A stretch of DNA of 64,000 nt from an uncultured Chloroflexia bacterium. Its GTDB lineage: Bacteria; Chloroflexota; Limnocylindria; QHBO01. Shown here one piece after another: positions 8,351 to 31,875 of this stretch (position 1 is its first letter; every line of letters starts with the position of its first letter). Under the pieces are notes generated by a model, which saw only the letters and a list, made by a program, of their open reading frames with translations, was not told the origin of the DNA and did no database searches. The translations under genes were made by a program, and so were the position numbers. The stretch lies in the NCBI GenBank assembly GCA_963720505.1, contig CAVRFT010000002.1:105589-169588 (forward strand), given 5' to 3'.

Positions 8351-8395
8351 TGGTGGGCGACAGTGGACTCGAACCAGTGACCTCTTGCATGTCAA
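8351..8395 (-). mobile_element. 3'-half copy of tRNA-Val (attR-like island boundary)
   Basis: tggtgggcgacagtggactcgaaccagtgacctcttgcatgtcaa matches 31799-31843 with 1 mismatch; ends at the anticodon loop. Confidence 0.92.
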
Positions 8396-8649
8396 CTATC
8401 AAGGCTTGCACGTAGTGCGCACAAGCACCGCGGAGCGTCCATCGAAGTCTCTGTTAATACGGTCAGTGGTCTTGGCGAGTTGCCGGGCCACTGGCGATCT
8501 AGGCGATGGCCGCCAAGGCCTGCGGTAGAGCCATTCCCGTTGAGCTCCCGCAGAGGACCTCCCACCCATATGGGTATGGCCCGGCGTTGGTACTAGCAAC
8601 ACCGGGCCATGACGACAGACGCTGCCGTGAGTGACAAATGTAGCGGCGC

Positions 8650-8707
8650 GGGGCGACGCCAGCCGCTTGCCATCCTGGGGATGGCCACGCTGCCACGGGA
8701 CCGCCGG
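8650..8707 (+). repeat. Repeat A copy 1 (near full)
   Basis: ggcgacgccagccgcttgccatcctggggatggccacgctgccacgggaccgccgg. Confidence 0.85.
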
Positions 8708-8855
8708 TGGGTGTCTTCATTCGACTTCGACGAGGGAGCCCCCACACGGGTCATCGCAGCGGCTCAGCCTGATCCAGGCACACAACGGGCCTGGCACGTG
8801 GTGGTACGCTCGCGAAGGCAGCCGTGATCCCCCGTTCTCATAGGTAACTGAGCCG

Positions 8856-9388
8856 ATGCAGCCCCGCCAGATCGCCCAACGTCCTCGAAGCGTCACGGTG
8901 CTCATCTGCGCCCTGGCTCTCCTGCTGATGGCGAGCTGTTCCACGGCGCCCGCGGCGTCCAGCGCGAGCGTGGCGTCGAGCCCGAGCGTCGCCCCCTCCG
9001 CCTTTCAGCAGCCATCGCCGACCGAGGCGGCCACCCCGTCCCCCCAAGCGAAAGCCAGGCCGAGGTCGGCCTGACGGGCACCTGGAGCGGCACCTGGAAG
9101 ATCGACCCGCCCTATTCCGGCACCGGCGGCTGGACCATGAAGGTGAAGCAGACCGGCAACAAGTTCAGTGGGACCGTTGACCTGACCAAGACGGACTGTT
9201 CGGACGGCACGGTCGACGGCAACGTCGACGGCTCGACGCTCAGCTTCGGCTGGATCGTCACGCCGCAACCCATCCATTTCGAGGGCCAGGTCAACGGCAC
9301 GTCGATGTCCGGCACTTGGTCCGCCAAGGCCTGCAGCGATTCGAAGATCTCGCTGACCGGAACCTGGAAAGGCACCAAGCAGCACTGA
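8856..9388 (+). CDS. Putative lipoprotein with S/P-rich linker and beta domain (frameshift near 9045)
   Basis: Lipobox LLMASC; repeated L(T/S)GTW motifs. Confidence 0.75.
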
Positions 9389-9456
9389 TTCTGGCGCCGG
9401 ATCCAAAGGGTGAACGCAGACGCTGGAAGGACCGATCGTCCCCGATGGAGCAGGTC

Positions 9457-9479
9457 TAGGGCCGGCGACGCCAGCCGCT
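9457..9479 (+). repeat. Repeat A copy 2 (left half, overlaps stop of 9478..9936)
   Basis: tagggccggcgacgccagccgct. Confidence 0.85.
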
Positions 9480-9936
9480 AGGGAGCCCGCTCGAACTCCC
9501 TGCCATCGATCGCGCCGCGACGGCCCGGGCATGCGTCATCAACTAACACGAGACGAAGGACGTCGTCCTCGACGGACCATTGGTAGGTGCCCACTCCACA
9601 CATGCCGCCCAGCAAGGTCACTTCCCCTGCCTCGACGTTGAGCATGCCCAGCACCTGCTCAATACCGGTTTCGAGGCGGTAGGTCGCATCTTCCATGATG
9701 TCCAGCATGACCGTGTCCCCGCCGGCGGTTTCCGCTCGCCACTCGCCTACCAGCTCAGGCGGTGGAGTGGGTCGTGGCGTTCGGGCCGCTGTCGGTATCG
9801 CTGAAGGGGAGGCGCTGCTAATCGAGGCTGGCACGGAAGCGCCTGGGGCGGCGCATGCGCTGAGGAGGAGCATCGCAAGCAGCGAACGCGGCACGCGCGA
9901 CGTCGAGGCGGTCAGCGCGATGAGGCTTCCCATCAT
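9478..9936 (-). CDS. Putative lipoprotein (cargo of B1)
   Basis: Lipobox LLLSAC, S/P/T linker, ELVGEW beta domain. Confidence 0.8.
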   Translation of the reverse strand: MMGSLIALTASTSRVPRSLLAMLLLSACAAPGASVPASISSASPSAIPTAARTPRPTPPPELVGEWRAETAGGDTVMLDIMEDATYRLETGIEQVLGMLNVEAGEVTLLGGMCGVGTYQWSVEDDVLRLVLVDDACPGRRGAIDGREFERAP

Positions 9937-9997
9937 CCCGTCGTCGACCCGCGCCGCTCGCGCAGCCGGTCGCTGAGCCGCCGCAGGGCCTGGCGTA
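9933..9997 (-). pseudogene. Repeat B copy 1 (3' remnant)
   Basis: Encodes ..ALRRLSDRLRERRGSTTG*; TGA overlaps downstream ATGs (ATGATG). Confidence 0.8.
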
Positions 9998-10018
9998 CTG
10001 CTGGTGGGGCGTGCCGTG

Positions 10019-10712: not shown

Positions 10713-11534
10713 GTGGTGAGCTCAGCGCTACGACTGCTTCTTCCTGCCCTGTGCGTCCTCGCCGCCTGCTCGGCTCAGGGAAACTCGTCAGCTACCACCG
10801 CACCGTCGGAAACCAAACCGGCGGGGACCGCAATCCCGTCCCCAGGCGCGTCGTCCATCCAGACAACGCTGCCTAGCCCGACGGTGGATCAGTCGAGACT
10901 GGCCATCGACGGGTTCGCAGAGGTTGTGACAAGCGATCTCGTTGTCCGGTCAGCGCCAGGAACCGGTCAGGACTCTGACATTCTTGGAACCGTCACCCAT
11001 GTCCCGGTCACCGTTTTGGACGGCCCGGTCCAGGCCAACGGTTACGAATGGTGGCTCATCAGACCGATTGATTCCGATGGGTTCGAACCGCCGCCATCGG
11101 GCTGGGTCGCCGCGGGAGGCCAGGGCGAGGTATGGCTCCGACCGACTGCCCTCAACTGTGAGGATGCTCCCACGAGCGAAAGACTTTGGGCGATGCCATC
11201 TGCTATCTGGGTGGGCTGCTACGCGGGCGAGGAGCTGACGCTTCGCGGCACACTGGACGGCTGTGCGACCGATACCAGCGGAACTGCCTGGCACGATAGC
11301 TGTGCACTCCGCAACTGTTTGCCGGACATCTGTGAACGCCTCTCTGACGACCGGCGCATCATCGTGCACTTTGATGCGTTACCGGCCACGCACGAAGGCC
11401 GAATCGGTGTCACCGGACATTTCGATGATCCGGGGGCCGAGCAGTGCGGCACCGACGGCGATCCGCTTTCACGCCTGGATATGTTCGCGTGTCGCACTCA
11501 CTTCGTGGTGACGTCTCACCGCTTCGCCGACTGA
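10713..11534 (+). CDS. Putative lipoprotein with SH3-like domain and Cys pairs, leaderless
   Basis: TAGGCT 6 nt before GTG; lipobox VLAAC; LVVRSAPG..GPVQANGYEWW..GWVA. Confidence 0.8.
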   Translation: MVSSALRLLLPALCVLAACSAQGNSSATTAPSETKPAGTAIPSPGASSIQTTLPSPTVDQSRLAIDGFAEVVTSDLVVRSAPGTGQDSDILGTVTHVPVTVLDGPVQANGYEWWLIRPIDSDGFEPPPSGWVAAGGQGEVWLRPTALNCEDAPTSERLWAMPSAIWVGCYAGEELTLRGTLDGCATDTSGTAWHDSCALRNCLPDICERLSDDRRIIVHFDALPATHEGRIGVTGHFDDPGAEQCGTDGDPLSRLDMFACRTHFVVTSHRFAD

Positions 11535-11544
11535 AGACGAGGAG

Positions 11545-11570
11545 TAGTGCCGGACGCCAGCCGCTCGCCA
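11545..11570 (+). repeat. Repeat A copy 3 (left half)
   Basis: tagtgccggacgccagccgctcgcca. Confidence 0.75.
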
Positions 11571-11654: not shown

Positions 11655-13151
11655 TCAGCGATCGGGTCGCGCGGCCTGAATTCGCCACGTCGTGCCGTCG
11701 TAGTGACTCCACACCGCCAGGGCGCTGCGACGGGCGTCTATGGCCACCGGGGGATCTGAGGCCCGCGGGCCTGGCACTGACAGGGTCTGGACCATGCCGA
11801 GGTGGCCCAATGCCGTGCGGCGCCGGAGCTGGATGGATGCGAGGCCCGTCGCGTCGAACAGCTGCCAGACCACCAGCGCGTTATTGGCGGCATCGATCGC
11901 CAGCTGCGGACGGTAGGCCTCGAGGCCGGCCGGCGACAACATCTGTACCGCGTTCAGGCCGCCCGTGGCCGAGCGGCGGCGAAGCTCGATCCTCGGCTTG
12001 GGGCCGTCGTAGCCTTGCCATACCACCAGCGCGGCACCGTTCCCGTTGATCGCAACCTGTGGCAGGTCACCACCTGCCGCTGACAGGGTCTGGACCGCGC
12101 TGAGCGTGCCCGCTGCCGAGCGGCTACACAGCTGGATGCCCCCGACGCCCGACCACACCACCACCGCATTGCTGTTTCGATCGATCGCGACCTGCGGACG
12201 GCTAGCATCTCCACCGGCCGGTGACAGGGTCTGCACCGCGCTGAGGCTGCCGGCGGCCGAGTGGCGGCGGAGCTGAATGCGGTCGTTAGTGCCGTCGTGG
12301 TGCGTCCACACCACTAGCGCGTTGCCGTTGGTGTCCATCGCCAGCTGTGGATACGCGGCGGCCCCGGGAGACAGCGTCCTGATCGGGCCCAGCGTGCCCG
12401 ACGCGGAGCGGCGACGGAGCTGGATACGGTAGGGTCCTGCTTGCTCGGCGCCGGTCCAGACCACCACCGCATTGCCGTGCCGATCGATCGCGACCTGCGG
12501 TCCGTATGCGTCAAACCCGAGGCCGGAGAGGGTCTGCACCGGGCCAAGCGTTCCGGAAACCGCGCGGCGGCGCAGTTGGATGACGTGGTTGTTCCCATTC
12601 CACAGCGTCCACACCACCAGCCCATTGCCGTTCCCATCGAGCGCGACCTGCGGCTGCGAGGCGTCGCGGTGAGCGGGCGACAGGGTCTGGACCGGGCTGA
12701 GGCTGCCCGACGCAAAGCGGCGGCGGAGCTGGATCCGGCCGTGGAAGCCGTCGGAGCGACCCCACACCACCAGCGCGTTGCCCTTGCTGTCGATCGCCAC
12801 TTGCGGCTCGTTTGCATCCCCGGCAAGGGGAGAGATGGTTTCCGCCAATGCCGCCTGCTGCTGACCGGCGAGCGACAGAATCTGTGGATGCGATGTGGCA
12901 ACTCGATCAGGGGCAGCTGCTCCGGTAACCGGAACAGCGGGCAAGGTGAGAGCTCCTGCCACCATCAACGAGACAAGGCCGCGCTCGAGGTGTCTCCTGG
13001 GAGAAGGCATACGGCTCTTCACGGCGTGATGCAGCGGCTGGGAAGCCTCAGTTGATTCCGCGTCCCGTCTTTGCCGCCAGACGATGAAAGCGACAACCTC
13101 GACGGCAACCGCGATGCCGGCGACGGCCCAACGGATCAAGCGCCAGTTCAT
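11655..13151 (-). CDS. Exported protein with 8 tandem ~50-aa repeats (probable beta-propeller)
   Basis: Eight PQ(V/L)A(I/L/M)DxxGNA(L/V)VVW-type repeats. Confidence 0.8.
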   Translation of the reverse strand: MNWRLIRWAVAGIAVAVEVVAFIVWRQRRDAESTEASQPLHHAVKSRMPSPRRHLERGLVSLMVAGALTLPAVPVTGAAAPDRVATSHPQILSLAGQQQAALAETISPLAGDANEPQVAIDSKGNALVVWGRSDGFHGRIQLRRRFASGSLSPVQTLSPAHRDASQPQVALDGNGNGLVVWTLWNGNNHVIQLRRRAVSGTLGPVQTLSGLGFDAYGPQVAIDRHGNAVVVWTGAEQAGPYRIQLRRRSASGTLGPIRTLSPGAAAYPQLAMDTNGNALVVWTHHDGTNDRIQLRRHSAAGSLSAVQTLSPAGGDASRPQVAIDRNSNAVVVWSGVGGIQLCSRSAAGTLSAVQTLSAAGGDLPQVAINGNGAALVVWQGYDGPKPRIELRRRSATGGLNAVQMLSPAGLEAYRPQLAIDAANNALVVWQLFDATGLASIQLRRRTALGHLGMVQTLSVPGPRASDPPVAIDARRSALAVWSHYDGTTWRIQAARPDR

Positions 13152-13263
13152 GGCTGGCCTCCATCTGCACGACTCTCACTGGATCGTTGCCTCTGCGGCT
13201 CAATCCCGCCAGTGCCGAAAGTCATTCCCATGGGATCACTCGGTGCCTGGCCGACGCACACGA

Positions 13264-13333
13264 TAGGGCCGGCGACGCCAGCCGCTCGCCATCCGAGGTA
13301 CAGATGGCCCCGCTGCCACGGAGCGCCGGCCCT
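13264..13333 (+). repeat. Repeat A copy 4 (full)
   Basis: tagggccggcgacgccagccgctcgccatccgaggtacagatggccccgctgccacggagcgccggccct. Confidence 0.95.
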
Positions 13334-13411
13334 GATCAAGACTGGCGCTGGCCGCTTACGCGGCACGCTGCGAACCACGGCCTAGGCATCGCCCTCCAGC
13401 AGCGCGATGTG

Positions 13412-13771
13412 TCACCGCGTCGCCCGAACCTCGTCCATACGAAGCCCGACGATTTGGCGCACGAGGTCAGCCGGGATCGGCTCGTCGGCTGGGAAGCGAA
13501 TAGTTCCTTTGCCATACATGTACGGCTTCAACGCATCGCCCAACTGCGCGGCCATGTGGTCCGACCACGGAAACAGGCTGTAGTGATTCTTGAACGCCTG
13601 GTAGGAGAGGAGAAACCTGCCGTCTAGCCGCAGCGCCGGCATGTTGTAAGCGATCGTTTCGGTCGCTTCCGGCGCGGCCGCCGTTACCGCCCGCCGCAGA
13701 TCCTCCATCGTCGCCCGACGGTCTCGTGGAAGGCCGGCCATGTAGTCGGCGACGCTCGCGTACTTAGTCAC
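13412..13771 (-). CDS. DUF1801/YdhG-like protein
   Basis: SVADYM..APEATETIAYNMP..AFKNHYSLFP..KGTIRFP. Confidence 0.9.
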   Translation of the reverse strand: MTKYASVADYMAGLPRDRRATMEDLRRAVTAAAPEATETIAYNMPALRLDGRFLLSYQAFKNHYSLFPWSDHMAAQLGDALKPYMYGKGTIRFPADEPIPADLVRQIVGLRMDEVRATR

Positions 13772-13820
13772 ACCTACTCATCTCCCACTGAGCTGGTACC
13801 GCGTTGCAGGCAGCGTGTCA

Positions 13821-13843
13821 TGGGCCGGCGCAGCCAGCGGCTC
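13821..13843 (+). repeat. Repeat A copy 5 (left half, overlaps stop of 13842..14231)
   Basis: tgggccggcgcagccagcggctc. Confidence 0.75.
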
Positions 13844-14231
13844 AGTCGGCGGTCGGCGGCATCTGGGAGGCGAACAGCTGCGTCAGATCTGGCGAGGTGA
13901 TCGGGTCGTCTTCGACGATCTTGCCATCTGCGAGCCGGTAGTACGTCAGGCCGCGGGCGACGATCGGCTCACCATTGTCCGGGGTGATCACGTAGCTGAA
14001 GCGGGCCACCACCGAATCTCCCTCGGCGACTAGGTCTCTGATTTCCATCCGGCTACCGGGACCGGCGGAGGCGACGTTCAGCCATGCCTTGAAACTGGCG
14101 CGGTCCATATCCCCCATCCCGCGATTCACATAGTCCGCACCAAGCAGGTCGTCAACAAGGTCGACCTGGCCACCGACCAGAACGTCATTGATGAACCGTC
14201 GGACGACCGCCTTGTTCTGTTCCGTGGACAT
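13842..14231 (-). CDS. SnoaL/NTF2-like ester cyclase family protein
   Basis: MSTEQNKAVVRRF..DLVAEGDSVVARF..DGKIVE; GGAGG RBS. Confidence 0.9.
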   Translation of the reverse strand: MSTEQNKAVVRRFINDVLVGGQVDLVDDLLGADYVNRGMGDMDRASFKAWLNVASAGPGSRMEIRDLVAEGDSVVARFSYVITPDNGEPIVARGLTYYRLADGKIVEDDPITSPDLTQLFASQMPPTAD

Positions 14232-14282
14232 GCATTGGCCTCCCTAGAGCTGGCGATAGAGCGGTGGCATGGACGCACATGG

Positions 14283-14311
14283 TAGGGCGGGCGACGCCAG
14301 CCGCTCGCCAT
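14283..14311 (+). repeat. Repeat A copy 6 (left half)
   Basis: tagggcgggcgacgccagccgctcgccat. Confidence 0.85.
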
Positions 14312-14599
14312 AAGAGGATGGAGGCGCTGCAGCGCATCGGCTGGCAGTGACCTTTGGCCCGGAAGACAGTGCCGCTTGCCACCTGTGCTGTGCTCTTCGT
14401 CGGCCGATGATCAACTCGGCGACCGTCGAATCGCCGTCAATCACAAAGCTGCTCGCACAGCGAATCCCGCCAAGAACCAGGCTGGCACGGGCGAGGCCGT
14501 TCCTGGATGCAGCGGGTGTGGGGCGGCGATTCGGCGGTCTTCATCTGGCCGCCGTCGATCGTCGTGGCTCGTGTTGATTCATGAAAAGGAGATAGACCT

Positions 14600-14878
14600 G
14601 TGACTACCACCGCAGCCTTCTCACGAGATGACGTCGCCGCCCTGGCCGCTGAACTGGGAGTGGCGGACGAGGTGGACCTGGAGCAACTCCGTGCCGGGAT
14701 GGAAGTCGAGCTGGAGCATGGTCGCCGCGACCCGCTCACCAACGTGACCGGCGACGACCCGCTGCTCACAGCGAAGATCGCACTGGCCCACCTGCGCGAG
14801 CTGCCCGAGTACTACGTGCGTCTGGCGGTCATGGAGGCCGCCGCTGAGGGCCGCCCGCCTGCCGTGGGCGACCGCTAA
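14600..14878 (+). CDS. DUF5661-like small protein
   Basis: GMEVELEHG..TNVT..KIALAHLRELPEYY; AGGAG RBS. Confidence 0.85.
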   Translation: MTTTAAFSRDDVAALAAELGVADEVDLEQLRAGMEVELEHGRRDPLTNVTGDDPLLTAKIALAHLRELPEYYVRLAVMEAAAEGRPPAVGDR

Positions 14879-14889
14879 ATCCGCTTTGG

Positions 14890-14955
14890 TGGGCCGGCGA
14901 CGCCAGCCGCTCACCATCTCACGGGAGGGCCGCGCTGCCACGGATCGCCGGCCCA
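14890..14955 (+). repeat. Repeat A copy 7 (full, extension to ~14991)
   Basis: tgggccggcgacgccagccgctcaccatctcacgggagggccgcgctgccacggatcgccggccca. Confidence 0.9.
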
Positions 14956-15000
14956 GGCGATGTTGTCAGTGGCCGCTTACCCAACGGCTTATCGGGGCCA

Positions 15001-15348
15001 TTACCTCATCGCCGAGCAATACTCGTGCGGGATCAGACAGTTTCCCCAAGACACGTAGAGCAAGAACGTCACGCCGAGCACGGCGATCACGATGGTGGCG
15101 GTCCGCCCCAAAGCTGAGCCGTTGAAGGCGTACCACAGCAGCCCGACCACGACCGCCAGGCCAACCGTCACCATCCCGTTGGTGCTGATGACAGTGTCCA
15201 CCATCCCCTCTGGCATCCCCGCGCCGAACGCATCGGCACTGGGCAGGAACTGGGACACCAGGATCGGGACCGCCACGCCCAGCATCACCAAGACACTGGC
15301 CGTGGCCGCTCCGAGGAGCCGCGAGGACTGCTGACTCAACGCTCCCAC
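15001..15348 (-). CDS. Hypothetical membrane protein (3 TM; cargo of B2)
   Basis: 115-aa hydrophobic ORF starting 8 nt after the B2 stop. Confidence 0.7.
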   Translation of the reverse strand: MGALSQQSSRLLGAATASVLVMLGVAVPILVSQFLPSADAFGAGMPEGMVDTVISTNGMVTVGLAVVVGLLWYAFNGSALGRTATIVIAVLGVTFLLYVSWGNCLIPHEYCSAMR

Positions 15349-15356
15349 GTCCCCGC

Positions 15357-15581
15357 CTAGCCCGTACTAGACCCGCGTCGCTCCCGCAGCTGGTCGCTGA
15401 GCCTCTGCAGGGCCAGGTATTCCCATCGCCCCACCCCGCTGGCGTAGTCATCGAAGGCCGGACCCTCGGCGACCGATACCCACTCCTGGCCGAACCGCCA
15501 CACGCCAAGGATCTGCCAGCCGAGCGGCAGCGATGCCTCAGCGGATATTCAGGCTTGCGAGAGGGCGCCCAAGGGTGCCAT
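15357..15581 (-). pseudogene. Repeat B copy 2 (full length, codon 11 TGG>TGA)
   Basis: MAPLGALSQA*ISAEASLPLGWQILGVWRFGQEWVSVAEGPAFDDYASGVGRWEYLALQRLSDQLRERRGSSTG*; TAGACT 6 nt upstream of ATG. Confidence 0.9.
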
Positions 15582-15713
15582 CCACGAAGTCTATGACCTT
15601 CGGCTCCGATTCTTCAGGTTGTACGACTCTGGCGTGATTGGCTGAAGAGCGCGATGTTGGCCAAGGCGACGACGCGGTTTTGGTCGTCGACACCCAAAGG
15701 AGGGGTAACAGTC

Positions 15714-16148
15714 ATGTCAAAGCCAACAGTCACCAAGGTCTTCCTGAGCAGCATCGTAGCGGTGATCGCCGGCGTCGTCCTGGGATTCGCTGCCGTCTGG
15801 TACGCGTACATCAACGACGCCTTTGTGATGAACGGGCCCGACGTCGTTGGGATTCAAGCGACGCCGGCGGCGTGGGGTATGGTCGGCTTGGCATTCGTCG
15901 CGGTGTTGACCATCGTTGGCGGATTCGTCGGCGGGCTCGTCTCCTGGATCGGAGCACTGCTGAACACTGCCCAACTCGAGGACAAGACGTGGTTCGTCGT
16001 GCTCCTGGTCCTGGGCGTGCTCAGCTTTGGCCTCGTGGCGATGATCGCGTATGTCATCGGCGGGCCGGACGGAACCAAGCCGAAGGATGCCCGGATGGGC
16101 GCCATCACTGCCGCGACATCCACTGTGGTGATGAATCCCAAGACCTGA
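15714..16148 (+). CDS. Hypothetical membrane protein
   Basis: AAGGAGG RBS; SWIGALLNTAQLEDKTWF..AYVIGGPDG. Confidence 0.8.
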   Translation: MSKPTVTKVFLSSIVAVIAGVVLGFAAVWYAYINDAFVMNGPDVVGIQATPAAWGMVGLAFVAVLTIVGGFVGGLVSWIGALLNTAQLEDKTWFVVLLVLGVLSFGLVAMIAYVIGGPDGTKPKDARMGAITAATSTVVMNPKT

Positions 16149-16217
16149 ACCAACACACGATGCGGTTCGCCCACTCACGGTGCGTGGGCGGGCCGCACCG
16201 TCGCGTTCGGCGGCCTT

Positions 16218-16283
16218 TAGGGCCGGGCCGCCAGCCGCTCGCCATCCGAGATACAGATGGCCACGCTGCCACGGAGCGCGGCC
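16218..16283 (+). repeat. Repeat A copy 8 (full)
   Basis: tagggccgggccgccagccgctcgccatccgagatacagatggccacgctgccacggagcgcggcc. Confidence 0.92.
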
Positions 16284-16287
16284 AACC

Positions 16288-16725
16288 TCACTCAACGCCT
16301 CTGACACCGTAGCTGGCCTCCACACAAACCAACGCGCCGTAGGCTTGGACCGAGCCCGCGACGGTGCCAACGTCGACAGGTAATCCGTCCTTTGCCGCGG
16401 CATGCCAGTTTGTGGATATCTTCGCCACGCTGTTGACGGCGTAGAACGGGCCGTCTCGAAGTTCATCCACCGCCCACAATCCGATGTCGCCCTCCCCCAT
16501 GAAGTCTCCTCCGTCGATTTCTGCTGCGACGACGAAGTCGAAGTCCGAACTCGGCGGCAGCGCCACTGCGTACGCGTGGTGGAGGAACTCCCCGCCCTGG
16601 ACGGCGAGTCGCTCGGAGATCGCCGTTTCGGACTCCGGCGCGGATATGCACTCGGCGTTTGTACCGGCATCGCCGCACGCGACGAGTGCCAGGGCGAGCA
16701 CGGGAGCCGCGACGAGTCGGGCCAT
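16288..16725 (-). CDS. Putative lipoprotein, leaderless
   Basis: TACTAT 7 nt before ATG; MARLVAAPVLALALVAC lipobox. Confidence 0.8.
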   Translation of the reverse strand: MARLVAAPVLALALVACGDAGTNAECISAPESETAISERLAVQGGEFLHHAYAVALPPSSDFDFVVAAEIDGGDFMGEGDIGLWAVDELRDGPFYAVNSVAKISTNWHAAAKDGLPVDVGTVAGSVQAYGALVCVEASYGVRGVE

Positions 16726-16736
16726 AGGCTCAATAG

Positions 16737-16804
16737 TAGGGCCGCCGACGCCAGCCGCTCGCCAATCCTGGGGGATGGTCACGCTGCCACGGAGCGCCGG
16801 CCCT
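16737..16804 (+). repeat. Repeat A copy 9 (full, extension to 16840)
   Basis: tagggccgccgacgccagccgctcgccaatcctgggggatggtcacgctgccacggagcgccggccct. Confidence 0.92.
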
Positions 16805-16837
16805 GGGTGATGCTGGCAGTGACCGCTTGCTGGCGGC

Positions 16838-17218
16838 TTAGATGCAACCGCCAGGCTCGGCGTCAATCCCCTCAAGCCACGGACGCAGCGGCACCTCCGT
16901 TCCCCCGGAGCTGGTGTAGATGGCCGTGTCGGGGTCGCGGAGCACGATGCTGCCGTGGTCCCAGACGGAATTGCCGTCGGTCACCTTCACATCGGCCCCA
17001 ACCACCAACGCCCCGGTGGGCACCTCCGCCGGTATCCAGACCGCGCCATTGATGTAGACCAGCTGAAGGCCGCAGTGGACCGATGCGGTGTGCGGGTAGT
17101 GCACGCCGATGGCCGGGTTTTGCAGGTTCGAGTTGTGCTCGGGAGTTGGCGAGGCAAGCAGGCCTTGGCATCCCGTCGTCAGGACGGCAGCAATGGCGAG
17201 GAGGAACCCCTTCGTCAT
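16838..17218 (-). CDS. Putative lipoprotein
   Basis: MTKGFLLAIAAVLTTGC lipobox; HCG motif; ATGA overlap with the upstream gene. Confidence 0.8.
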   Translation of the reverse strand: MTKGFLLAIAAVLTTGCQGLLASPTPEHNSNLQNPAIGVHYPHTASVHCGLQLVYINGAVWIPAEVPTGALVVGADVKVTDGNSVWDHGSIVLRDPDTAIYTSSGGTEVPLRPWLEGIDAEPGGCI

Positions 17219-23554: not shown

Positions 23555-23935
23555 ATGGCTATCGTCCTTGTCGTCAACGACGATCGTGACATGCTCGAGG
23601 TGTACGAAGCACTCCTCGCCGAGATGGGCCATCGTGCCGTGCCGCGCCTGGAACTCGATCCCAATCCGGAAGAGGTCCTAAAGGCGCGTGCCGATGCCCT
23701 GGTAATCGACCTCCAAGCCGGGGCGCACCCCGTAGCGGGCCTCAAGGTCATCGAGGCGCTGCGGAGCAATCCGGCGACGCAGAAGATTCCGATCGTCCTT
23801 AGCACAGGCGCTGCGAACGAGGTCAAGCCGCTCCTGAACCGTCTATCGAAGCTCGACGTGCCCGTGCTGATCAAGCCCTTCGCCACGGACGAGTTCAAAA
23901 ACGTGGTCGGGCGCGTGCTGCCACCCGGCACCTAA
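23555..23935 (+). CDS. Single-domain response regulator
   Basis: VLVVNDD..ALVIDL..IPIVLSTG..KPF. Confidence 0.85.
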   Translation: MAIVLVVNDDRDMLEVYEALLAEMGHRAVPRLELDPNPEEVLKARADALVIDLQAGAHPVAGLKVIEALRSNPATQKIPIVLSTGAANEVKPLLNRLSKLDVPVLIKPFATDEFKNVVGRVLPPGT

Positions 23936-25198: not shown

Positions 25199-25340
25199 CC
25201 GGTCCCGCTGGCGTCGTCATCAAGGCCGGACCTTCGGGTGTACCGTCCCTAGTCAACGAAGGACAGCGCACTTGGGAACCCGCCGATGATGGTTGTCGGC
25301 GAGTTCTCGACACCGATCCGCACCGCCAGAGGAACACTCG

Positions 25341-26454
25341 ATGTCGCGCTTCCGTCTCGCCACGTTCGCCACCCTCGCGCTGTGCCTGACCGCGATGCTG
25401 CCCGCGCCGGTCCTGGCAGCCGCGCCGAAGCTGGGAACTGGCGTCGTCCAGCATGGACTGACCATCCCTTGGGACGTGGCCTTCGCGCCGGGCGGCCAGA
25501 TGTTCGTCACCGAGCGACCGGGTCGGGTGCGCGTCTTCCAGAGCGGCAAGCCCAATGCGCCGTTGCTGGGCACTTCGACCATCCCTCGGGTGCATGCGGA
25601 CGGCGAGGCCGGCGCGATGGGCATCGCCCTCGATCCCCATTTCGCAGTGAGTCGCTTCGCGTATGTCTGCGCCTCGCGCCAGGTCCAGGGTCAGTGGCGC
25701 AACCAGGTGATCAAGTACCACGTCAACCGCCGGTGGAAGCTGGACTTCCAGCGCTTCATCATCCGGTTGGGTATGCACGCGGCCGCCAGCCACAACGGCT
25801 GCGCCGTGCAGGTCGGGCCGGATAACAAGCTGTGGGTGACCATGGGCGACGCCGGCCACGCCAAGTGGGCCCAGATTCCGAATCGGCGCAACGGCAAGGT
25901 GCTCCGTGTCAACCTGGACGGGAGCGTGCCGGCCAGCAACCCGATCTGGCCGGGCAACAGCGCGCCCGACCATCGTGTACTCGATCGGGCATCGCAACCC
26001 GCAGGGCATCACCTTCGAGCCGATCACCCATCGCGCGTATGCGGCCGAGCACGGTCCCGACCGCGACGACGAGATCAACTGGATCCGGCCGGGCCGCAAC
26101 TATGGCTGGCCGTGCGTCACCGGGATGAATCACGTGAATACGGGCTGCGCCGGGACCTTCTCGCTTCCGGCATGGTCGTCCGAGGGCCCGACCCTGGCCA
26201 CCTCCGGCGCCACCTTCGTGAACAACGCGAACTGGGAGAGCTGGAACAAGAGCCTGTTCGTGTCGACGCTGAAGGAGTCGGACCTGCGGCGCTTCAGGGT
26301 CAAGGCCGATACCTGGAAGCTCACGATGCGCGACACGTTGTTCAACATGCGCTGGGGTCGCCTGCGGGCGGCGGTGATGGGCCCGTTTGGCAAGCTCTAC
26401 CTGACCACCTCAAATGGCAACAACGACAAGGTCGTGCGCATCACCCCGAACTGA
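25341..26454 (+). CDS. PQQ-dependent sugar dehydrogenase (GSDH/YliI family), frameshift near 25960
   Basis: PWDVAFAP..VTERPG, HNG, GDAG, GHRNPQG, EHGP, GRNYGWP, GRLR. Confidence 0.9.
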
Positions 26455-26521
26455 CCGGGCTCCAAGGCGGCTCACGCTAGGCCCCCAGCTAAGCGTCGAG
26501 GGCTGCCATCGGCACGGATTT

Positions 26522-26590
26522 GGGGCCGGCGCCGCCAGCCGCTCGCCATCCGAGGTACAGATGGCCACGCTGCCACGGAGCGTCGGCCCT
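26522..26590 (+). repeat. Repeat A copy 15 (full)
   Basis: ggggccggcgccgccagccgctcgccatccgaggtacagatggccacgctgccacggagcgtcggccct. Confidence 0.95.
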
Positions 26591-26841
26591 AGGCGATTCT
26601 GGCGGTGCCCGTTGGTCGACCGATTGCTGCGATTGAAGGATCGCCGCCGCGGCGGCCCCATACGTCGTAGAGGCGGTCGCTTTGGCTGCCAACGTGGAGG
26701 GTGGTTGTGGCTGAGCACCAGCAGCAGAAGTCGCCAATGCGCACCTCGACTCCAGCGACCTTATCGGCCGTGGGCGCGCTGGTCCCTGCCGGCCGTGGCC
26801 GGACGAAGGGAAAGCGTATGCTCGCTGAGGCGCGCTCCGTG

Positions 26842-28029
26842 ATGAGACGCCCAGCCATCGATAACCGTCTCGCTATCGTGGTGGCCCTTGGGCTGTGCGT
26901 CACCGCATGTGGAGGCGACCGTGGGCTCTCCCCGACGAGCTCCACCGCAGTCCCCACCGAGACCACGCAGACTGCTAGCGACAGAGGCCCTCTGATCCTG
27001 TTCGGCCGCGCCATGCCTGGGAGCGATCAGTTCGAGACCTTCATCATCGGCGTCAACGGGGACCCGCCAGAGACCGGGCTGACCGACGTGACTGAATGCT
27101 GTCCGTCCTGGTCACCGGACGGAACGATCATCATGGTGCCGGACACGCAGGCCTCATCACGTGTGCTTCCAGCCACCGTCAACGCCGATGGCACCGGCTA
27201 TGAGGTCTACAAGATCGGGCCGCCGACCTTGAACCTCGGACCGGGCGGTTGGTCGCCTGACGGGAACAAGATCGTGTTCGAGGGATGGGATGACACAGAC
27301 CCGAGCCGCACTGGTGTCTATGTGAGTGAGGGGTTCACGCTGAGCGGGGCAGCGCCAGTCCAGATCACGCAAGCCCCCGTGCACGATATTCCGTTCGAGT
27401 GGTCGCCGGATGGAACGCGCCTTCTCCTGATTCAGGGGACGCGCTGCGGCGAGGTCGACTGCAACGGGGGCGACCTGTACGTGGTGAACTCCGACGGTTC
27501 TGGCCTGACTCGGCTCAACCCCGAAGGCACGTTCGTTTCATGCTGCGCGCCGGCAAGCTGGTCACCCGACGGCACGCAAGTCGCCTTCGGTGCGCCCATC
27601 CTCGATGATGCCGGAGCCGCCGACTTCACCACCTCCGCCGTCTACGTGGCCCAGGCGGACGGCTCCGGGGTGGAGGCCATCACCGAGCCGGGCGCGTTCA
27701 CGGAGGCTGCCGAGTGGTCTCCCGATGGCGACTGGATCGTTTTCAACAAGAAGAGTGGCCCCATCGGCGTGAAGGGCAGTGATCTGTATCTGATTCATCC
27801 GGACGGCAGCGGACTGAAGGCCATAACCACCGCGGGAGCAGCCGGCAAGAGCGATCAGGGCGGAGCTGTCTGGTCGCCCGACGGAACTCGCCTGCTGTTC
27901 ACTTCCATACCGGGTGGCCCGGATCAAGGGCAGGATCTGTGGATCGTCGACGTCGACGGGACAGGCCTCACCCAACTAACTGACACGCCGGCACAGGTAT
28001 TCGGGTACAGCTGGCAGCCAGGGAACTGA
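26842..28029 (+). CDS. TolB-like (PD40 repeat) lipoprotein
   Basis: Lipobox CVTAC; six WSPDG repeats. Confidence 0.9.
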   Translation: MRRPAIDNRLAIVVALGLCVTACGGDRGLSPTSSTAVPTETTQTASDRGPLILFGRAMPGSDQFETFIIGVNGDPPETGLTDVTECCPSWSPDGTIIMVPDTQASSRVLPATVNADGTGYEVYKIGPPTLNLGPGGWSPDGNKIVFEGWDDTDPSRTGVYVSEGFTLSGAAPVQITQAPVHDIPFEWSPDGTRLLLIQGTRCGEVDCNGGDLYVVNSDGSGLTRLNPEGTFVSCCAPASWSPDGTQVAFGAPILDDAGAADFTTSAVYVAQADGSGVEAITEPGAFTEAAEWSPDGDWIVFNKKSGPIGVKGSDLYLIHPDGSGLKAITTAGAAGKSDQGGAVWSPDGTRLLFTSIPGGPDQGQDLWIVDVDGTGLTQLTDTPAQVFGYSWQPGN

Positions 28030-28068
28030 GCGAGCGGTTGTCCGACATCAAGTAGGCTAGTTTGCTAA

Positions 28069-28136
28069 GGGGCCGGCGACGCCAGCCGCTCGCCATCCGA
28101 GGTACAGATGGCCACGCTGCCACGGAGCGCCGGCCC
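28069..28136 (+). repeat. Repeat A copy 16 (full, consensus-like)
   Basis: ggggccggcgacgccagccgctcgccatccgaggtacagatggccacgctgccacggagcgccggccc. Confidence 0.95.
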
Positions 28137-28235
28137 GGAGGCGATCCTGGTGGTCGCCCGTCATCGGCGCCTATCCAACGCTTTCGCAGGTCGCGCTATT
28201 AGGCATGACCGACTCCCGCCGCTAGCGCGGCCCCG

Positions 28236-28682
28236 CTACCGGTTCCGGCGCCATATCGCGAAGTTGAGCGCCGTCGCAAAGCTGACCCAGCCCAGGTACG
28301 GGAGGAGCAGGACACCTGCGACGGGCCGTCGTGAGAAGAACGCCGCCACGGTCCCGACAAGGGCAACCCACAGCAGGACGATGTTGATGAGCGCTAGCCC
28401 CGGTGCCCGGAGGCCGAAAAAGACGGGGGTCCACGTGGCGTTCAGCGCCAGCTGCGCACTCCAGAGCGCCAACGGTGTGCGAGATGCCGAGCCGCCCTTG
28501 CCTGCGACGAGCCACGCCGCGATGCCCATGAGCGCGTACAGGACCGTCCATACGGGGCCGAAGAGCCACCCCGGCGGTGCCCAGGACGGCTTCTCAAGAC
28601 GAGCGTAGTACTCGGGCGCAGGAAACCGGTAGCCAATCACAGCCGGCACGAAGGCGAGGACGAGCCAGCGAAGGAGTCGCAT
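28236..28682 (-). CDS. tspO: TspO/MBR tryptophan-rich sensory protein
   Basis: LEKPSWAPPGWLFGPVWTVLY..QLALNATWTPVFF..PYLGWVSFATALN. Confidence 0.93.
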   Translation of the reverse strand: MRLLRWLVLAFVPAVIGYRFPAPEYYARLEKPSWAPPGWLFGPVWTVLYALMGIAAWLVAGKGGSASRTPLALWSAQLALNATWTPVFFGLRAPGLALINIVLLWVALVGTVAAFFSRRPVAGVLLLPYLGWVSFATALNFAIWRRNR

Positions 28683-28724
28683 GGCGGCGTGCGCTTGCAC
28701 ATCGAGTGCCTGAACGACACAAGT

Positions 28725-28782
28725 CCGATGCCAGCCGCTCACTATCACGGTGGATGGTCACGCTGTCACAGAGCGCCGGCCC
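28725..28782 (+). repeat. Repeat A copy 17 (divergent)
   Basis: ccgatgccagccgctcactatcacggtggatggtcacgctgtcacagagcgccggccc. Confidence 0.85.
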
Positions 28783-28920
28783 GACCGGACCATACGCGGC
28801 GGTACTTATTCACGGCTTACCAGGCAGATCAGGACCTTCGTAGCATGCCGTCAGGTCGGCGGGGCGGGCTGCGCGTTTCCCCAGGGGGCCCGCTGGCTCC
28901 CTCCCTGGAAGGGGTAAGGC

Positions 28921-29170: not shown

Positions 29171-29590
29171 GTGGATGGGACCTCGCTCATCGCCGTCGCT
29201 GCAAGCCTGCTCGGGGTGTGGCTGCTGCTCATCGCCGTGCTGTGGCTGCTCAGACCGCGCGACGTGCAGCTCGGGCAACTGGTCCGCGTTGTGCCCGATG
29301 TGCTGCGCCTAATCCGGCAGTTGCTCGGCGATTCGTCTACCCCGCTCGGGGTGCGACTGGCCTTGATCGGACTGCTGGCCTGGCTCCTCAACCCCATCGA
29401 CCTGATTCCCGAGTTCATCCCGGTGCTCGGTCCACTCGACGATGTGGTGGTGGCGGTGCTGGTCCTGCGCTACGTCCGCCGCCGCCTGGGTGACGAGGAA
29501 CTGCGCGAACGATGGCGTGGCACACCCGATGGCTACGCGCTGCTTAGCGGGATTCTCGGCTCAAACGGCCGTTCATCGAAGAACGGCTGA
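29171..29590 (+). CDS. DUF1232/YkvA family membrane protein, leaderless
   Basis: PIDLIPEFIPVLGPLDD; CACACT 6 nt before GTG. Confidence 0.92.
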   Translation: MDGTSLIAVAASLLGVWLLLIAVLWLLRPRDVQLGQLVRVVPDVLRLIRQLLGDSSTPLGVRLALIGLLAWLLNPIDLIPEFIPVLGPLDDVVVAVLVLRYVRRRLGDEELRERWRGTPDGYALLSGILGSNGRSSKNG

Positions 29591-29808
29591 CCCGTTGTCG
29601 GTCCTCTCCGCCCCTGCAGCCGGTCACTGACCCGCTGCAGGGCCAGGTATTCCCATCGGCCGACGCCACTCGCGTAATCGTCGAATGATGGGCCTCCGGC
29701 TACCGATACCCACACCTCGCCGAACCGCCATACCCCGAGGTTTGCCAGCCGAGGGGCAGCGATGCCTCAGCTTAGACCCAGGCTTGGGAGAGAGCTCCGA
29801 GGGGCCAT
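29591..29808 (-). pseudogene. Repeat B copy 5 (indels and stop)
   Basis: ..GALSQAWV*AEASLPLGWQ/LGVWRFGEVWVSVAGGPSFDDYASGVGRWEYLALQRVSDRLQGRRGPTTG; TACGAT 6 nt before ATG. Confidence 0.88.
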
Positions 29809-30156
29809 CCCTGGATCGTAGGGGCGTGGTCCGAACCTACTGGCTGGGCTGTGCAGCGCGCCGGGCCACCGCCACGCCAGCGCCAATCGTTGCCACCCAG
29901 ATCCCGTAGGCCAACCGAGGCGGGCGGACTCGCGCGGAGTGGATGCCACTCGCGCCGTTCAGGATCACGCATGGCGTCCCAGGCTGAAATCGACCCGATG
30001 GCAAGGCCTAACCCGATCACAACTGAGGATGCCGGGATGGTACCTGATGACAGGCGTTAGGCCGAAGCCGACCAGCGCGTACTGGGTGCGACCGCGCTAG
30101 CCATCTACCGCCTCCCCCAGTAACCGGAGCGGCGGCACCGACAAAGACCCGTCGCC

Positions 30157-30223
30157 TAGCCGGCGACCGAAGCGGCCCGCCATCCGAGGGACCAGACGGA
30201 AGACCAGCCAACGCGGCTGCCCT
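30157..30223 (+). repeat. Repeat A copy 18 (highly degenerate)
   Basis: tagccggcgaccgaagcggcccgccatccgagggaccagacgg..gccct. Confidence 0.55.
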
Positions 30224-30403
30224 AGCGCAGGTGAGGGGAGACCCTATTGAACCCGGCGCTAACACGCGTTGACTGGCCTCTGACCCGAAGGGTATTCGGC
30301 AGACCAAGATTGGGCAATGACTATGGGCCCCGCTGACCGGATTACCGATCGGGGGACTATTGGCCCGCGAACACACTCGATTTCGCAGGCCCGCCACTTG
30401 CGA

Positions 30404-31588
30404 ATGTGCAGGTTCGTGACATGGCAGCTGATCGAGCGGCCCTTGGTGGCCGCGGCATACGCAGTCAACCTGGCTGTGCGCGCTCGGCACGGCCTTCGCA
30501 GCCGCGGACGGCAGACTGGGACAGCGGAGGGCATCATCCGCTCGTGTATCGACGAGTGCTGGGATGGGACCCACTATCGAGCCAGCGCAGGGCATTTCCG
30601 GCAGTTCTGGACTCGGGACCTCAGTTTCAGCGCCCCGGCCCTGGCTCGCCTCAGTCCGGGGCATGCCGACCGCGTCATCCGATCCTATGAGTGGGCGATC
30701 CGCACTTGGCAGCGCCGCCGCAGCCATGTCACGACCACGATCCACTATTTCGATCAACCCGTCGACGTCTTCGACTTCGGCGTCGATTGCCTGCCGCTGA
30801 TGTTGGCCGCCCTGCGGCGGGTGGGGGCCGAGGATCTCCTTGAGGAGCACCGAGCGTGGCTGGAGGGCGAGGTGCGGCACTACGTGGATGAGGTGGTGGA
30901 CCCCCGCACCGGCATGGTGCGGGGTGACCGCAAGTACAGCGCCCACCGCGACACCATCGTCAACCGCTGCAACGCCTTTGGGAACAGCATGGTGGCCTTG
31001 CTGGCCATGACGGTCGCGGAACTGGGCTGGGAGCTACCCGAACGCTTGCGCCCGCTCGCGCTCGCCCCCCAGAGCATTCTGCTTGATCGCTTCTGGGATG
31101 CACGGGGCTTCTTCATCGACTCCATCGGCGATAACACGCCATCCGGCGAAGGCAATATCTGGCCCTTCTGGACGGGCGTGGTTACCGATGACGCCGTCCT
31201 GCGCACGGCCCTCCACGAGCTGGAGGCGCGAGGGTACGCGGACCCCTACCCGCTTAAATACGAGGTCGCCCGTCGACCGCAGCTCGAGCCGCTGTTCGTG
31301 CGAACGTTCATGCCTGACTACCAAGGCGCCACGGTGTGGACCTCACTGGGCTCGATGTACCTGCAGCTGCTCCACACGTGCGACCCGGCGTTGGCGCGCC
31401 CTGAGATCGTTCGCTACCGGACCTGGATCGAGCGGGATGGGACCTTCTGGGAGGTCATCGATGATGAGACCGGAGAGCGGTACCGCTCGACCTTCATGAC
31501 CCGCAGCGACGAGGGCATGCTGTGGTCCGCGATCTTCCTCGACCTACTTGAAAACCCCGATCTCCCGCCGGCCACCATGCGGCCGTAG
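30404..31588 (+). CDS. Six-hairpin glycosidase-like protein (start uncertain)
   Basis: HFRQFWTRD, YQGATVW, FWE motifs typical of (alpha/alpha)6 glycoside hydrolases. Confidence 0.7.
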   Translation: MCRFVTWQLIERPLVAAAYAVNLAVRARHGLRSRGRQTGTAEGIIRSCIDECWDGTHYRASAGHFRQFWTRDLSFSAPALARLSPGHADRVIRSYEWAIRTWQRRRSHVTTTIHYFDQPVDVFDFGVDCLPLMLAALRRVGAEDLLEEHRAWLEGEVRHYVDEVVDPRTGMVRGDRKYSAHRDTIVNRCNAFGNSMVALLAMTVAELGWELPERLRPLALAPQSILLDRFWDARGFFIDSIGDNTPSGEGNIWPFWTGVVTDDAVLRTALHELEARGYADPYPLKYEVARRPQLEPLFVRTFMPDYQGATVWTSLGSMYLQLLHTCDPALARPEIVRYRTWIERDGTFWEVIDDETGERYRSTFMTRSDEGMLWSAIFLDLLENPDLPPATMRP

Positions 31589-31685
31589 CCCTCACACCCG
31601 CTGCCAGGTGTCGCCGCCGTTCGCGCCAGAGGAGCACGATGGTCGCCATCGCCATGATGGCGGTGAGTAGTAGGTTCCGCGCGCA

Positions 31686-31752
31686 TTAGCCGCTCGCCGG
31701 TCCTCGCCGCTCCCGCAGCCGGTCGCTGAGCCGCTGCAGGGCCAGGTATTCC
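31686..31752 (-). pseudogene. Repeat B copy 6 (3' remnant 46 bp downstream of the tRNA)
   Basis: EYLALQRLSDRLRERRGPASG*; TAATG overlap with a decayed signal-peptide-like start. Confidence 0.85.
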
Positions 31753-31798
31753 TGCGGCCCCTGTTAAGGCGGTCTAGTTCGTGCTCAGAAAGGGTGTT

Positions 31799-31875
31799 TG
31801 GTGGGCGACACTGGACTCGAACCAGTGACCTCTTGCATGTCAAGCAAGTGCTCTAACCAGCTGAGCTAGCCGCCC
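31799..31875 (-). tRNA. tRNA-Val(GAC)
   Basis: GGGCGGCTAGCTCAGCTGGTTAGAGCACTTGCTTGACATGCAAGAGGTCACTGGTTCGAGTCCAGTGTCGCCCACCA; full cloverleaf, encoded CCA. Confidence 0.98.

Follow-up and report, generated by a model that had tools for sequence, protein, structure and literature searches.

The 64-kb window analysed here (the whole stretch, G000:C2:105589-169588) belongs to a Limnocylindria metagenome-assembled genome (MAG; G000, 2.53 Mb in 7 contigs, approximately 70% GC, rated 71% complete) and holds a decayed, integrase-less genomic island of 23.4 kb (8396-31798) at the 3' end of a tRNA-Val gene, with a small older remnant alongside. The island is built of approximately 18 short modules lying between co-oriented copies of repeat A, a lineage-specific folded repeat that was previously undescribed, and it also contains copies and pieces of a small open reading frame (ORF), here called B. 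A first-pass annotation had described the locus as an integron-analogous array of gene cassettes punctuated by two repeat families.

Results

The tRNA-Val(GAC) gene is the sole tRNA gene that ARAGORN finds in the window, and its 3' end faces the island (Table 1). Its displaced 3' half, noted in the first-pass annotation, is a 48-nt copy at the distal border that comprises the last 45 nt of the gene and 3 nt beyond. A third, more diverged repeat of the same tRNA end bounds an extra 0.83-kb remnant, and synteny with the closest relative (G011) breaks at window position 7454. The GC content is 0.63-0.67 over 8-32 kb, compared with 0.68-0.71 before and 0.66-0.75 after. The tRNA-end repeats and the lower GC thus give the frame of a tRNA-integrated island, and two of the three marks of such islands that were looked for, a tRNA-end repeat at the distal border and presence/absence polymorphism at the orthologous locus, are found; the third, an integrase gene inside the island, is not. 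A crude gene caller predicts 29 genes between the tRNA repeat and the tRNA; with two further ORFs, at 21511-21966 (a Pfam match) and 10713-11534 (a signal peptide), this agrees with the approximately 30 short genes counted before. The spacing from A to A is 0.45-4.5 kb, and in the approximately 10 intervals with a single ORF, A lies 5-70 nt from the ORF ends.

With a profile built from six copies of A, nhmmer finds 17 matches at E ≤ 10 in the window; they fall within 8652-30191, and every one is on the plus strand. An eighteenth copy, the left-arm piece A5, came from repeat finding, so that all 18 copies of the first-pass annotation were recovered in a single orientation. Seven are full length (A4, A7, A9, A11, A15, A16 and A17, the last without its left arm); the others are pieces, two of them weak (A3 and A18). 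A search for the 17-nt core of A with up to three mismatches returned 18 matches where 1.7 are expected, a number reached by none of 100 shuffled sequences, and 12 of the 18 lie inside the island, all on the plus strand. The copies have diverged from each other (61-98% identity). Read from the tRNA, the order B6, A18, B5, A17 and so on to B1, A2, A1 was reproduced exactly, and within the window the profile and B searches confine both A and B to the island.

Repeat A measures approximately 70-110 nt and consists of a left arm, a first hairpin, an unpaired stretch on its 3' side and a second hairpin (a full copy is, for example, 28068-28177). In 34 copies aligned from several genomes, the inner and upper stem of the first hairpin is 95% paired, with one pair changed from G-C to A-U in six copies. 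The lower part of this hairpin allows two mutually exclusive pairings (90-92% or 69-79% of cells paired), neither of which is favoured by covariation, and its loop is 3-9 nt long. The most conserved part of A, above the stems, is the unpaired 12-15 nt 3' of the stem, a near-invariant one-sided bulge. The second hairpin is variable in sequence, and all six of its pairs have changed on both sides. Over the alignment there are 31 doubly changed cells, compared with 11.3 ± 2.7 in shuffles, none of 500 of which reaches 31. Copies with tails that are 64-84% alike have first hairpins that are 96-98% alike. On the plus strand G-T wobbles outnumber A-C mismatches (51 versus 26), a count biased by an alignment fitted to the plus-strand model. 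Consistent with the first-pass expectation that A is not a known element, no Rfam family (release 15) matches A at the gathering threshold; at E ≤ 1 no family matches A in 13200-19500, and the whole window yields the tRNA only.

The left edge of A is sharp: over all loci, each of the 46 copies with a left arm begins at profile position 2-6 (24 full copies, 16 with left arm and hairpin and 6 with the left arm only). A further 16 rows hold right-hand parts of A, several of them chance matches in coding DNA. Many copies start with TAG or GTAG, and the termini have a weak inverted similarity (by eye only). A sits at the 3' ends of genes, often between convergent genes, and its orientation is constant whichever strand the neighbouring genes use. 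Scans of the sequence found no T-run after either hairpin (2 terminator-like sites versus 7.4 expected, none at A) and no promoter-like site at A (3 versus 1.8 expected). We also considered the A core as a Chi-like hotspot and rejected it: its 10-mer occurs 63 and 44 times per strand, with no orientation pattern outside the arrays.

Across G000, the profile has 31 matches at E ≤ 1, which form four to five loci plus three weak singletons, and 15 of the 31 lie in the tRNA-Val island; other loci are listed in Table 1. The orientation is the same within every cluster, be it in G000, in the five clusters of G011 or in G009:C163 (three copies, minus). A is clustered, not dispersed; a scatter over the genome in both orientations would have spoken against the first-pass annotation. 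We searched 41 genomes with a covariance model (CM), namely G000, 24 others of its family (13 of them of its genus) and 16 of other families; the counts include G017, a genome flagged as unpublished that has no A, B or G022-integrase match and one Xer-like match. A is present in 11 of the 41 genomes including G000, that is, in 7 of the 13 others of the genus and in three further genera of the family, and in none of the 16 genomes of other families. A metagenome scan with a 21-nt A pattern matched 27 contigs, of which 8 contain genuine copies of A, the others being chance matches in coding DNA; viral contigs had no match to this pattern. Some contigs with B (L048, which also has A; L032, L043 and L047; and L049) belong to MAGs labelled Conexibacteraceae, Gemmatimonadales and Acidimicrobiia, which reflects either mis-binning or cross-phylum transfer.

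Comparison with G011 (7 contigs, rated 58% complete; tRNA-Val flanking genes 82-88% identical) revealed fast turnover, in agreement with the idea that cargo is not conserved among relatives. The orthologous tRNA-Val locus of G011 has 2.1 kb on the island side with no A or B. Conversely, the tRNA-Cys of G011 is followed, exactly from its 3' end, by an 8.7-kb A/B array at a place where the G000 junction is uninterrupted, and other G011 arrays lie at the 3' end of tRNA-Thr and in a gap of core synteny. At the tRNA-Leu/tRNA-Lys locus both genomes have A arrays, with unrelated content. There, on G011:C6 (L087, approximately 2491-2530 and 7315-7389), synteny with G000 stops midway through tRNA-Lys, and beyond an A array and an integrase remnant, 4.8 kb further on, stands an intact tRNA-Lys; this array seems to be bounded by a 5' rather than a 3' tRNA fragment.

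Two modules also recur in other arrays, which points to module mobility. The segment 9458-9978 (an A left arm, a lipoprotein gene and a B stub) recurs at C7:289357-289877 over 521 bp at 98% identity that starts exactly at the outer edge of A and ends inside the B stub, with unrelated flanks. A 369-bp module between two A copies (G000 C7:273068-273435) recurs in G011:C2 at 96% identity, compared with approximately 84-88% for flanking core genes of the two genomes. In G011 it lies inside a split B, one end being a fixed point in the A core and the other a 2-3 nt microhomology with B. A fixed crossover point in A was considered, given that the left-arm-only copies of the window end within approximately 3 nt of each other; the end of the 369-bp module lies 6 nt off and truncation points scatter across all loci, which reduces it to a hint. 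Public reads covering the region are sparse: of the 22 runs listed, 20 contain some of it (23% of the sampled words or less), with contigs of 150-500 nt at a depth of 2-5 that tile the region piecewise at 95-100% identity. Among nine read joints listed, mostly with 21 letters on the shorter side, three touch A (19341 to 16772, 21181 to 13271 and 26588 to 28838); these may be repeat-induced assembly joins, and the reads were set aside as evidence on excision, habitat or expression.

ORF B occurs at six places in the island, as copies or pieces that all lie on the tRNA strand, as previously noted. At E ≤ 0.001 the intact B3 matches 143 homologues, almost all 74 aa long, at a mean column identity of 72%. 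The first-pass annotation had treated B as a punctuating repeat equal to A, which does not hold: B is a real, conserved 74-aa protein gene that 12 of the 13 other genomes of the genus carry, for the most part once, outside arrays and in varied neighbourhoods (MgtE in G008, an Opp permease in G003). G000 itself has a second intact B at C7:201922-202146, 59% identical and outside any array. B has no match in Pfam, PHROGs or NCBIfam. Its AlphaFold model, of modest confidence (predicted local distance difference test 74.5), has a helix, two strands and two helices; none of 95 matches in the PDB reaches E ≤ 0.001, and the Atlas neighbours are all unnamed. B lies on the strand opposite to A in every shared locus (12 of 12 A matches in B-oriented loci). 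Within arrays, the break lies at nt 48-187 of 225 in N-terminal pieces of B and at nt 69-180 in C-terminal ones, and stubs of its 3' end (14-24 codons) directly precede differing genes, with overlapping stop and start codons. Because its pieces are broken at many positions, we read B in the arrays as probable frequent cargo, or collateral truncated later, and not as machinery. Distant B-like small ORFs at L016 7858-8061 (G003) and G000 C3:220215-220334 share approximately 35% identity and an N-terminal motif with it, which suggests a wider superfamily of small, putatively island-associated B-like proteins; the one in G003 stands directly beside a tRNA-Val 3' fragment.

The cargo is of the kind named in the first-pass annotation, with SnoaL, DUF1801 and SRPBCC genes identified by Pfam and lipobox-type signal peptides recognized by eye in at least six island ORFs. 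Further Pfam matches comprise DUF5661, two receiver domains, HEAT repeats, an AAA-type kinase fold, a PD40 propeller and DUF1232, and searches of Pfam, PHROGs and NCBIfam detected no toxin or immunity family among the island cargo. Two genes are diverged copies of core genes of the same genome: the broken glucose/sorbosone dehydrogenase gene is 87% identical to C3:634984-636100 and the TspO gene 81% identical to C6:410827-411286. In both cases the homology is confined to the ORF, which does not prove ORF-precise capture, as intergenic DNA is unalignable at such divergence anyway. A 498-aa ORF at 11655-13151(-) is built of approximately seven tandem units of approximately 150 nt, with weak BNR-like Pfam hints only, and G011:C4:337774-339165, a gene 70% identical to it, adjoins a copy of A. 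The island also has two stand-alone response-regulator receiver genes, at 22232-22693 and 23555-23935(+), the latter recurring with its own flanks at G000 C7:293664-294161 (88%).

Four PF00589 matches were found in G000, at C2:2569-3118, 224092 and 258631, and none in C2:113-137 kb, where the island lies. The recombinases found are two Xer-like genes and a broken one, approximately 100 kb from the island. Elsewhere, tyrosine recombinase genes do stand beside A: a decayed one next to tRNA-Lys at the tRNA-Leu/tRNA-Lys array of G011, and, in G022, an intact, Xer-like one of 313 aa that adjoins tRNA-Leu on the margin of an A/B island. Two short contigs, L052 (G003:C185) and L054 (G009:C137), carry a tyrosine recombinase of 310-318 aa with an IS91-type Y2 transposase (approximately 390 aa) after it; of the sub-threshold matches to the integron-integrase model in the genus, this recombinase scores best, and it is absent from G000 and G011.

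Beyond the island, a major facilitator superfamily (MFS) transporter gene at 6131-7443(-) is split into an N-terminal part with MFS_3/MFS_1 matches (6769-7443) and a C-terminal part (6131-7093), as either a pseudogene or a long-read indel error; the island genes at 8856-9388 and 25286-26454 are split likewise. On the other side of tRNA-Val, a FAD-binding/BBE oxidase gene at 31969-33372(-) is also non-syntenic with G011 and has homologues of 76-81% elsewhere in five relatives, so that both sides of the tRNA are variable. The GC maximum of the window (0.754) is at 46001-48000.

Table 1 Positions of the tRNA-derived repeats, A and B copies and selected cargo genes in the window, and of A elsewhere in G000 (CM, covariance model)
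Feature	Position	Strand	Description
tRNA-Val(GAC)	31799-31875	minus	ARAGORN; Rfam tRNA 68.5 bits; 3' end faces island
tRNA-Val 3'-end direct repeat	8348-8395	minus	48 nt, 96% to 31796-31843; distal border, attR-like
Third tRNA 3'-end repeat	7466-7513	minus	83% identity; older, more diverged
A1	8652-8707	plus	Without outer left arm and tail; profile 9-67, E 3e-10; CM 38 bits
A2	9457-9480	plus	Left arm only; abuts stop codon of 9478-9936(-)
A3	11546-11570	plus	Weak left-arm piece; E 0.09; 17-mer with 2 mismatches
A4	13264-13372	plus	Full; E 4e-28; CM 98.6 bits
A5	13820-13842	plus	Left arm only; abuts SnoaL stop codon; 78% repeat match
A6	14283-14358	plus	Left arm intact, rest diverged; E 1e-7
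A7	14890-14995	plus	Full, between convergent genes; E 2e-24
A8	16218-16280	plus	Left arm and first hairpin, no tail; E 3e-15
A9	16737-16846	plus	Full; last bases are stop codon of 16838-17308(-); E 8e-28
A10	18570-18605	plus	Right-hand fragment; E 0.003
A11	19313-19421	plus	Full, top score; E 2e-32; CM 116 bits
A12	19909-19953	plus	Tail (second hairpin) only; profile 63-106
A13	21470-21537	plus	Right part; profile 25-101
A14	22018-22046	plus	Left arm only; 96% repeat match
A15	26521-26632	plus	Full; E 2e-30
A16	28068-28177	plus	Full; E 3e-28
A17	28726-28820	plus	Without outer left arm; profile 11-108
A18	30159-30191	plus	Doubtful piece; E 1.8 only
B1	9936-9989	minus	C-terminal stub, aa 55-72; stop overlaps start codon of next gene
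B2	15360-15572	minus	Full length, one in-frame TGA
B3	17574-17798	minus	Intact 74-aa ORF within co-directional gene run 18526 to 16838
B4	20395-20610	minus	Full length, two in-frame TAG
B5	29590-29801	minus	Frame-shifted, stop codon lost
B6	31689-31760	minus	C-terminal stub, aa 49-72; 38 nt from tRNA 3' end
DUF1801	13412-13771	minus	Pfam; single-gene module
SnoaL	13842-14231	minus	Pfam; single-gene module
SRPBCC (Polyketide_cyc2)	19415-19876	minus	Pfam 7e-18; single-gene module
Glucose/sorbosone dehydrogenase paralogue	25286-26454	plus	Broken; Pfam GSDH on C-terminal half only
Second TspO gene	28236-28748	minus	Pfam TspO_MBR 7e-48; A on both sides within 26-59 nt
A in G000	C2:333031		One copy, 70 nt downstream of tRNA-Lys
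A in G000	C7:199005		One copy, near tRNA-Leu
A cluster in G000	C7:272980-274331	minus	4 copies
A cluster in G000	C7:285959-295808	plus	7 copies

Discussion

Our tentative preference is to read A as the recombination site of an integron-like, hairpin-directed cassette system, with an enzyme acting in trans and an array that was later eroded. The single orientation of A, its clustering, its folded structure, the size of the modules, their turnover and mobility and the sharp left edge all argue for this. One strand of A would form a hairpin in which two boxes are paired, a large conserved region stays unpaired and the loop varies, and recombination between sites that point in the same direction would insert or excise ORF-sized circles. 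The enzyme would not be an integron integrase, and only Xer-type tyrosine recombinases were seen in G000. The partial copies would be the product of later erosion by homologous and illegitimate recombination among A and B, B being frequent cargo and not machinery. Three of these points we infer: the role of A as a recombination site, its action as a single folded strand and the enzyme that would serve it. A more far-reaching version is possible yet rather doubtful: an integron-like system would have evolved a second time, independently, with A as its hairpin-folded single-strand site, unrelated to attC in sequence, and a non-IntI enzyme (Xer-type or unrecognized) would capture and shuffle ORF-sized cassettes throughout the Limnocylindria, in several small arrays seeded at tRNA genes. 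The cassettes would include copies of core genes of the lineage itself, which would open cassette genesis to study here.

A number of results weigh against a dedicated cassette system. The attC core heptamers RYYYAAC (R'') and GTTRRRY (R') occur anywhere in 2 and 1 of the 34 aligned A copies, respectively, and no GTT or AAC is conserved in the alignment columns (at most 15% and 3% of copies); the first-pass annotation had likewise seen neither attC cores nor intI. The best match to IntI (NCBIfam TIGR02249) in G000 scores 82 bits, far from the cut-off of 265, and none of the 41 genomes has a match over the cut-off. Searches of G000 found no Y1 HUH transposase (PF01797, 0 matches), serine recombinase, reverse transcriptase or TnpB, an absence that is unproven at 71% completeness, a rating that, like the 58% of G011, is probably lowered by long-read frame-shifts. 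As the engine, an IS91-type Y2 transposase was rejected, occurring in 3 of the 14 genomes of the genus (G003, G009 and G010) and in neither G000 nor G011, the two genomes with the largest A arrays. The Xer-like integrase of G022 is unsupported as a partner specific to A, its family being class-wide and present also in genomes without A; we take it to be an ordinary island integrase. Among the enzymes searched for, no candidate was found to co-occur with A. Neither do the borders fit cleanly. Modules are only partly bounded by A, right-hand ends of A are scattered and many copies are ragged, the break points in B are scattered and not fixed, and the borders of two of the four paralogous module pairs (the response regulator and X4, the gene after B4) are unrelated to A. 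The gene modules, by crude gene calls, number approximately 13 on the minus and 12 on the plus strand, without a common direction of expression, and in public reads neither an excised circle nor an A-bounded deletion could be demonstrated. What the first-pass annotation had observed was confirmed throughout, and none of the three outcomes that it named as refuting arose. Of the proposed integron-analogous island, what stands is a tRNA-anchored, integrase-less locus of short modules and co-oriented structured repeats; the role given to B and the capture platform with its trans-acting enzyme lack support in the form proposed.

We favour the integron-like system only slightly over homologous or illegitimate recombination anchored on repeats, which the first-pass annotation had offered as its alternative and which comes close behind, as a possible though doubtful explanation. 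The locus would then be a plasticity zone without a dedicated enzyme, in which A (approximately 100 nt), B (225 nt) and the tRNA end serve as portable homology: DNA of relatives would enter by a RecA crossover in one repeat and, opposite it, an illegitimate join at microhomology (homology-facilitated illegitimate recombination). The array would then be shuffled and eroded by unequal crossover and deletion, and A would be kept for a different reason, for example as a terminator or insulator hairpin, and homogenized by gene conversion. This is the best explanation of the scattered break points in B, and it would equally account for the ragged right side of A, for the 521-bp module that ends in a B tail as a homology tract, for the 369-bp module joined to B of G011 by microhomology, for duplicated modules bordered independently of A and for the lack of a co-occurring recombinase. 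First hairpins more alike than tails are as expected from gene conversion, and a circle integrating through a homologous A also yields direct orientation. What it leaves unexplained is why the same element accompanies all the unrelated modules, why the unpaired bulge is its most conserved part and why the left edge is sharp in every one of the 46 copies; furthermore, a terminator role finds no T-run after either hairpin, and efficient exchange by RecA generally calls for longer homology than 70-110 nt at 80-95% identity.

The remaining explanations are less probable. A small non-autonomous mobile element, such as a miniature inverted-repeat transposable element (MITE), a repetitive extragenic palindromic (REP) element or a palindrome-associated transposable element (PATE), could have settled in the intergenic DNA of islands, the short spacers giving the look of cassettes. 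Its size of 70-110 nt and its hairpin potential, the sharp left edge, the weak inverted similarity of its ends and its distribution (10 of 24 other genomes of the family, none of 16 of other families) would suit such an element, as would the TAG or GTAG start, which recalls the GTAG head of REP elements. We nevertheless consider it unlikely, given only approximately 30 copies in four to five clusters of one orientation each, half of the copies partial, and no Y1 (RAYT/IS200), Y2 or TnpB gene in G000. No homologous pair of sites with and without A alone emerged in the comparisons made, and A orientation does not follow GC skew, which in G000 is too weak and noisy for a correspondence to be read. 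Somewhat less likely again is that A is a purely cis-acting RNA element, a 3'-end or stability hairpin or a small RNA, in accessory operons piled up by successive, integrase-mediated insertions at the tRNA. Covariation in both hairpins, the excess of G-T wobbles expected of a strand-specific fold, the position at gene 3' ends and the tRNA-end repeats and integrase remnants of such islands are consistent with this; the wobble count carries the bias mentioned above, two tRNA-end repeats face 18 A copies, neither an Rfam family nor T-run terminators were found, and A keeps its orientation independently of the strand of neighbouring genes. An artefact of assembly or binning, that is, a collapsed or chimeric repeat region, is very improbable. 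The MAG is incomplete and several genes of the window are interrupted by frame-shifts of the kind that indel errors in long reads produce, but the same A/B architecture recurs in independent assemblies (10 other genomes with A, 8 metagenome contigs and 30 B loci), the A copies are diverged and not collapsed, and short public contigs cover the region.

To our knowledge, integrons are so far the sole known platform that stockpiles single-gene cassettes at folded-DNA sites. The origin of cassettes and the integrase-less clusters of attC sites are long-standing open questions. Here, an array with integron architecture, minus the integrase and the site motifs, is present in an abundant uncultured soil lineage, and among the cargo are diverged versions of core genes from the lineage itself (TspO and glucose/sorbosone dehydrogenase). 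If recombination at A is enzyme-driven, this would be a second solution to the same task, and a place to seek a new recombinase and to study cassette genesis; if it is not, the island would be a clear natural case of a short conserved repeat organizing a hypervariable island by homology alone. Either way, neither A nor the 74-aa B family has been described before, and both make useful markers for the variable islands of Limnocylindria genomes.

Several known systems resemble the island in part. Orphan-module arrays of the contact-dependent growth inhibition (CDI)/Rhs type also place a stub of a conserved gene, here the B 3' end, before each variable gene, although B is a complete 74-aa protein with its own stop and not the conserved part of a long toxin. 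REP elements and bacterial interspersed mosaic elements (BIMEs), with their REP-associated tyrosine transposases (RAYTs), share with A the short extragenic imperfect palindromes at gene 3' ends, and some A copies have the (G)TAG head. REP elements, however, number hundreds chromosome-wide in both orientations, whereas A has approximately 30 copies in uniformly oriented clusters and no Y1 transposase was found in G000. Islands and satellites that target tRNA genes are alike in the 48-nt tRNA-end repeat at the far border, the absence in a relative, the lower GC and the integrase genes or remnants beside the equivalent A/B islands of G022 and G011; the island in G000 has neither integrase nor remnant, and 18 co-oriented repeats are atypical of ordinary islands.

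The island has the architecture of integrons and of attC-site clusters that have no integron integrase (CALINs), but it is not a member of either, as tests for IntI (in 41 related genomes) and for the attC cores found neither. It differs from CALINs also in that A is conserved in sequence, with a long one-sided bulge and a separate second hairpin, whereas attC sites are conserved mainly in structure; in that genes stand on both strands instead of reading in one direction with the site downstream; and in that each genome has several small arrays, mostly at tRNA genes, with many partial sites. Integrons occur in Chloroflexi, and half of the described CALINs are in genomes without intI, according to PMC4889954. 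A literature search found no paper on integrons in Limnocylindria, and the titles and abstract openings listed for attC sites, CALINs and cassettes in Chloroflexi mention no such array. What the island shares with CALINs and with sedentary chromosomal integrons such as that of the Vibrio cholerae repeats (VCRs) is considerable: there is no integrase nearby, at least two co-oriented sites lie at cassette-sized spacing (17 of 17 plus), the repeats are homogeneous within the lineage while the array varies among relatives, and imperfect-hairpin repeats of approximately 100 nt, all in one orientation, separate mostly single-ORF, promoter-poor and unrelated accessory modules.

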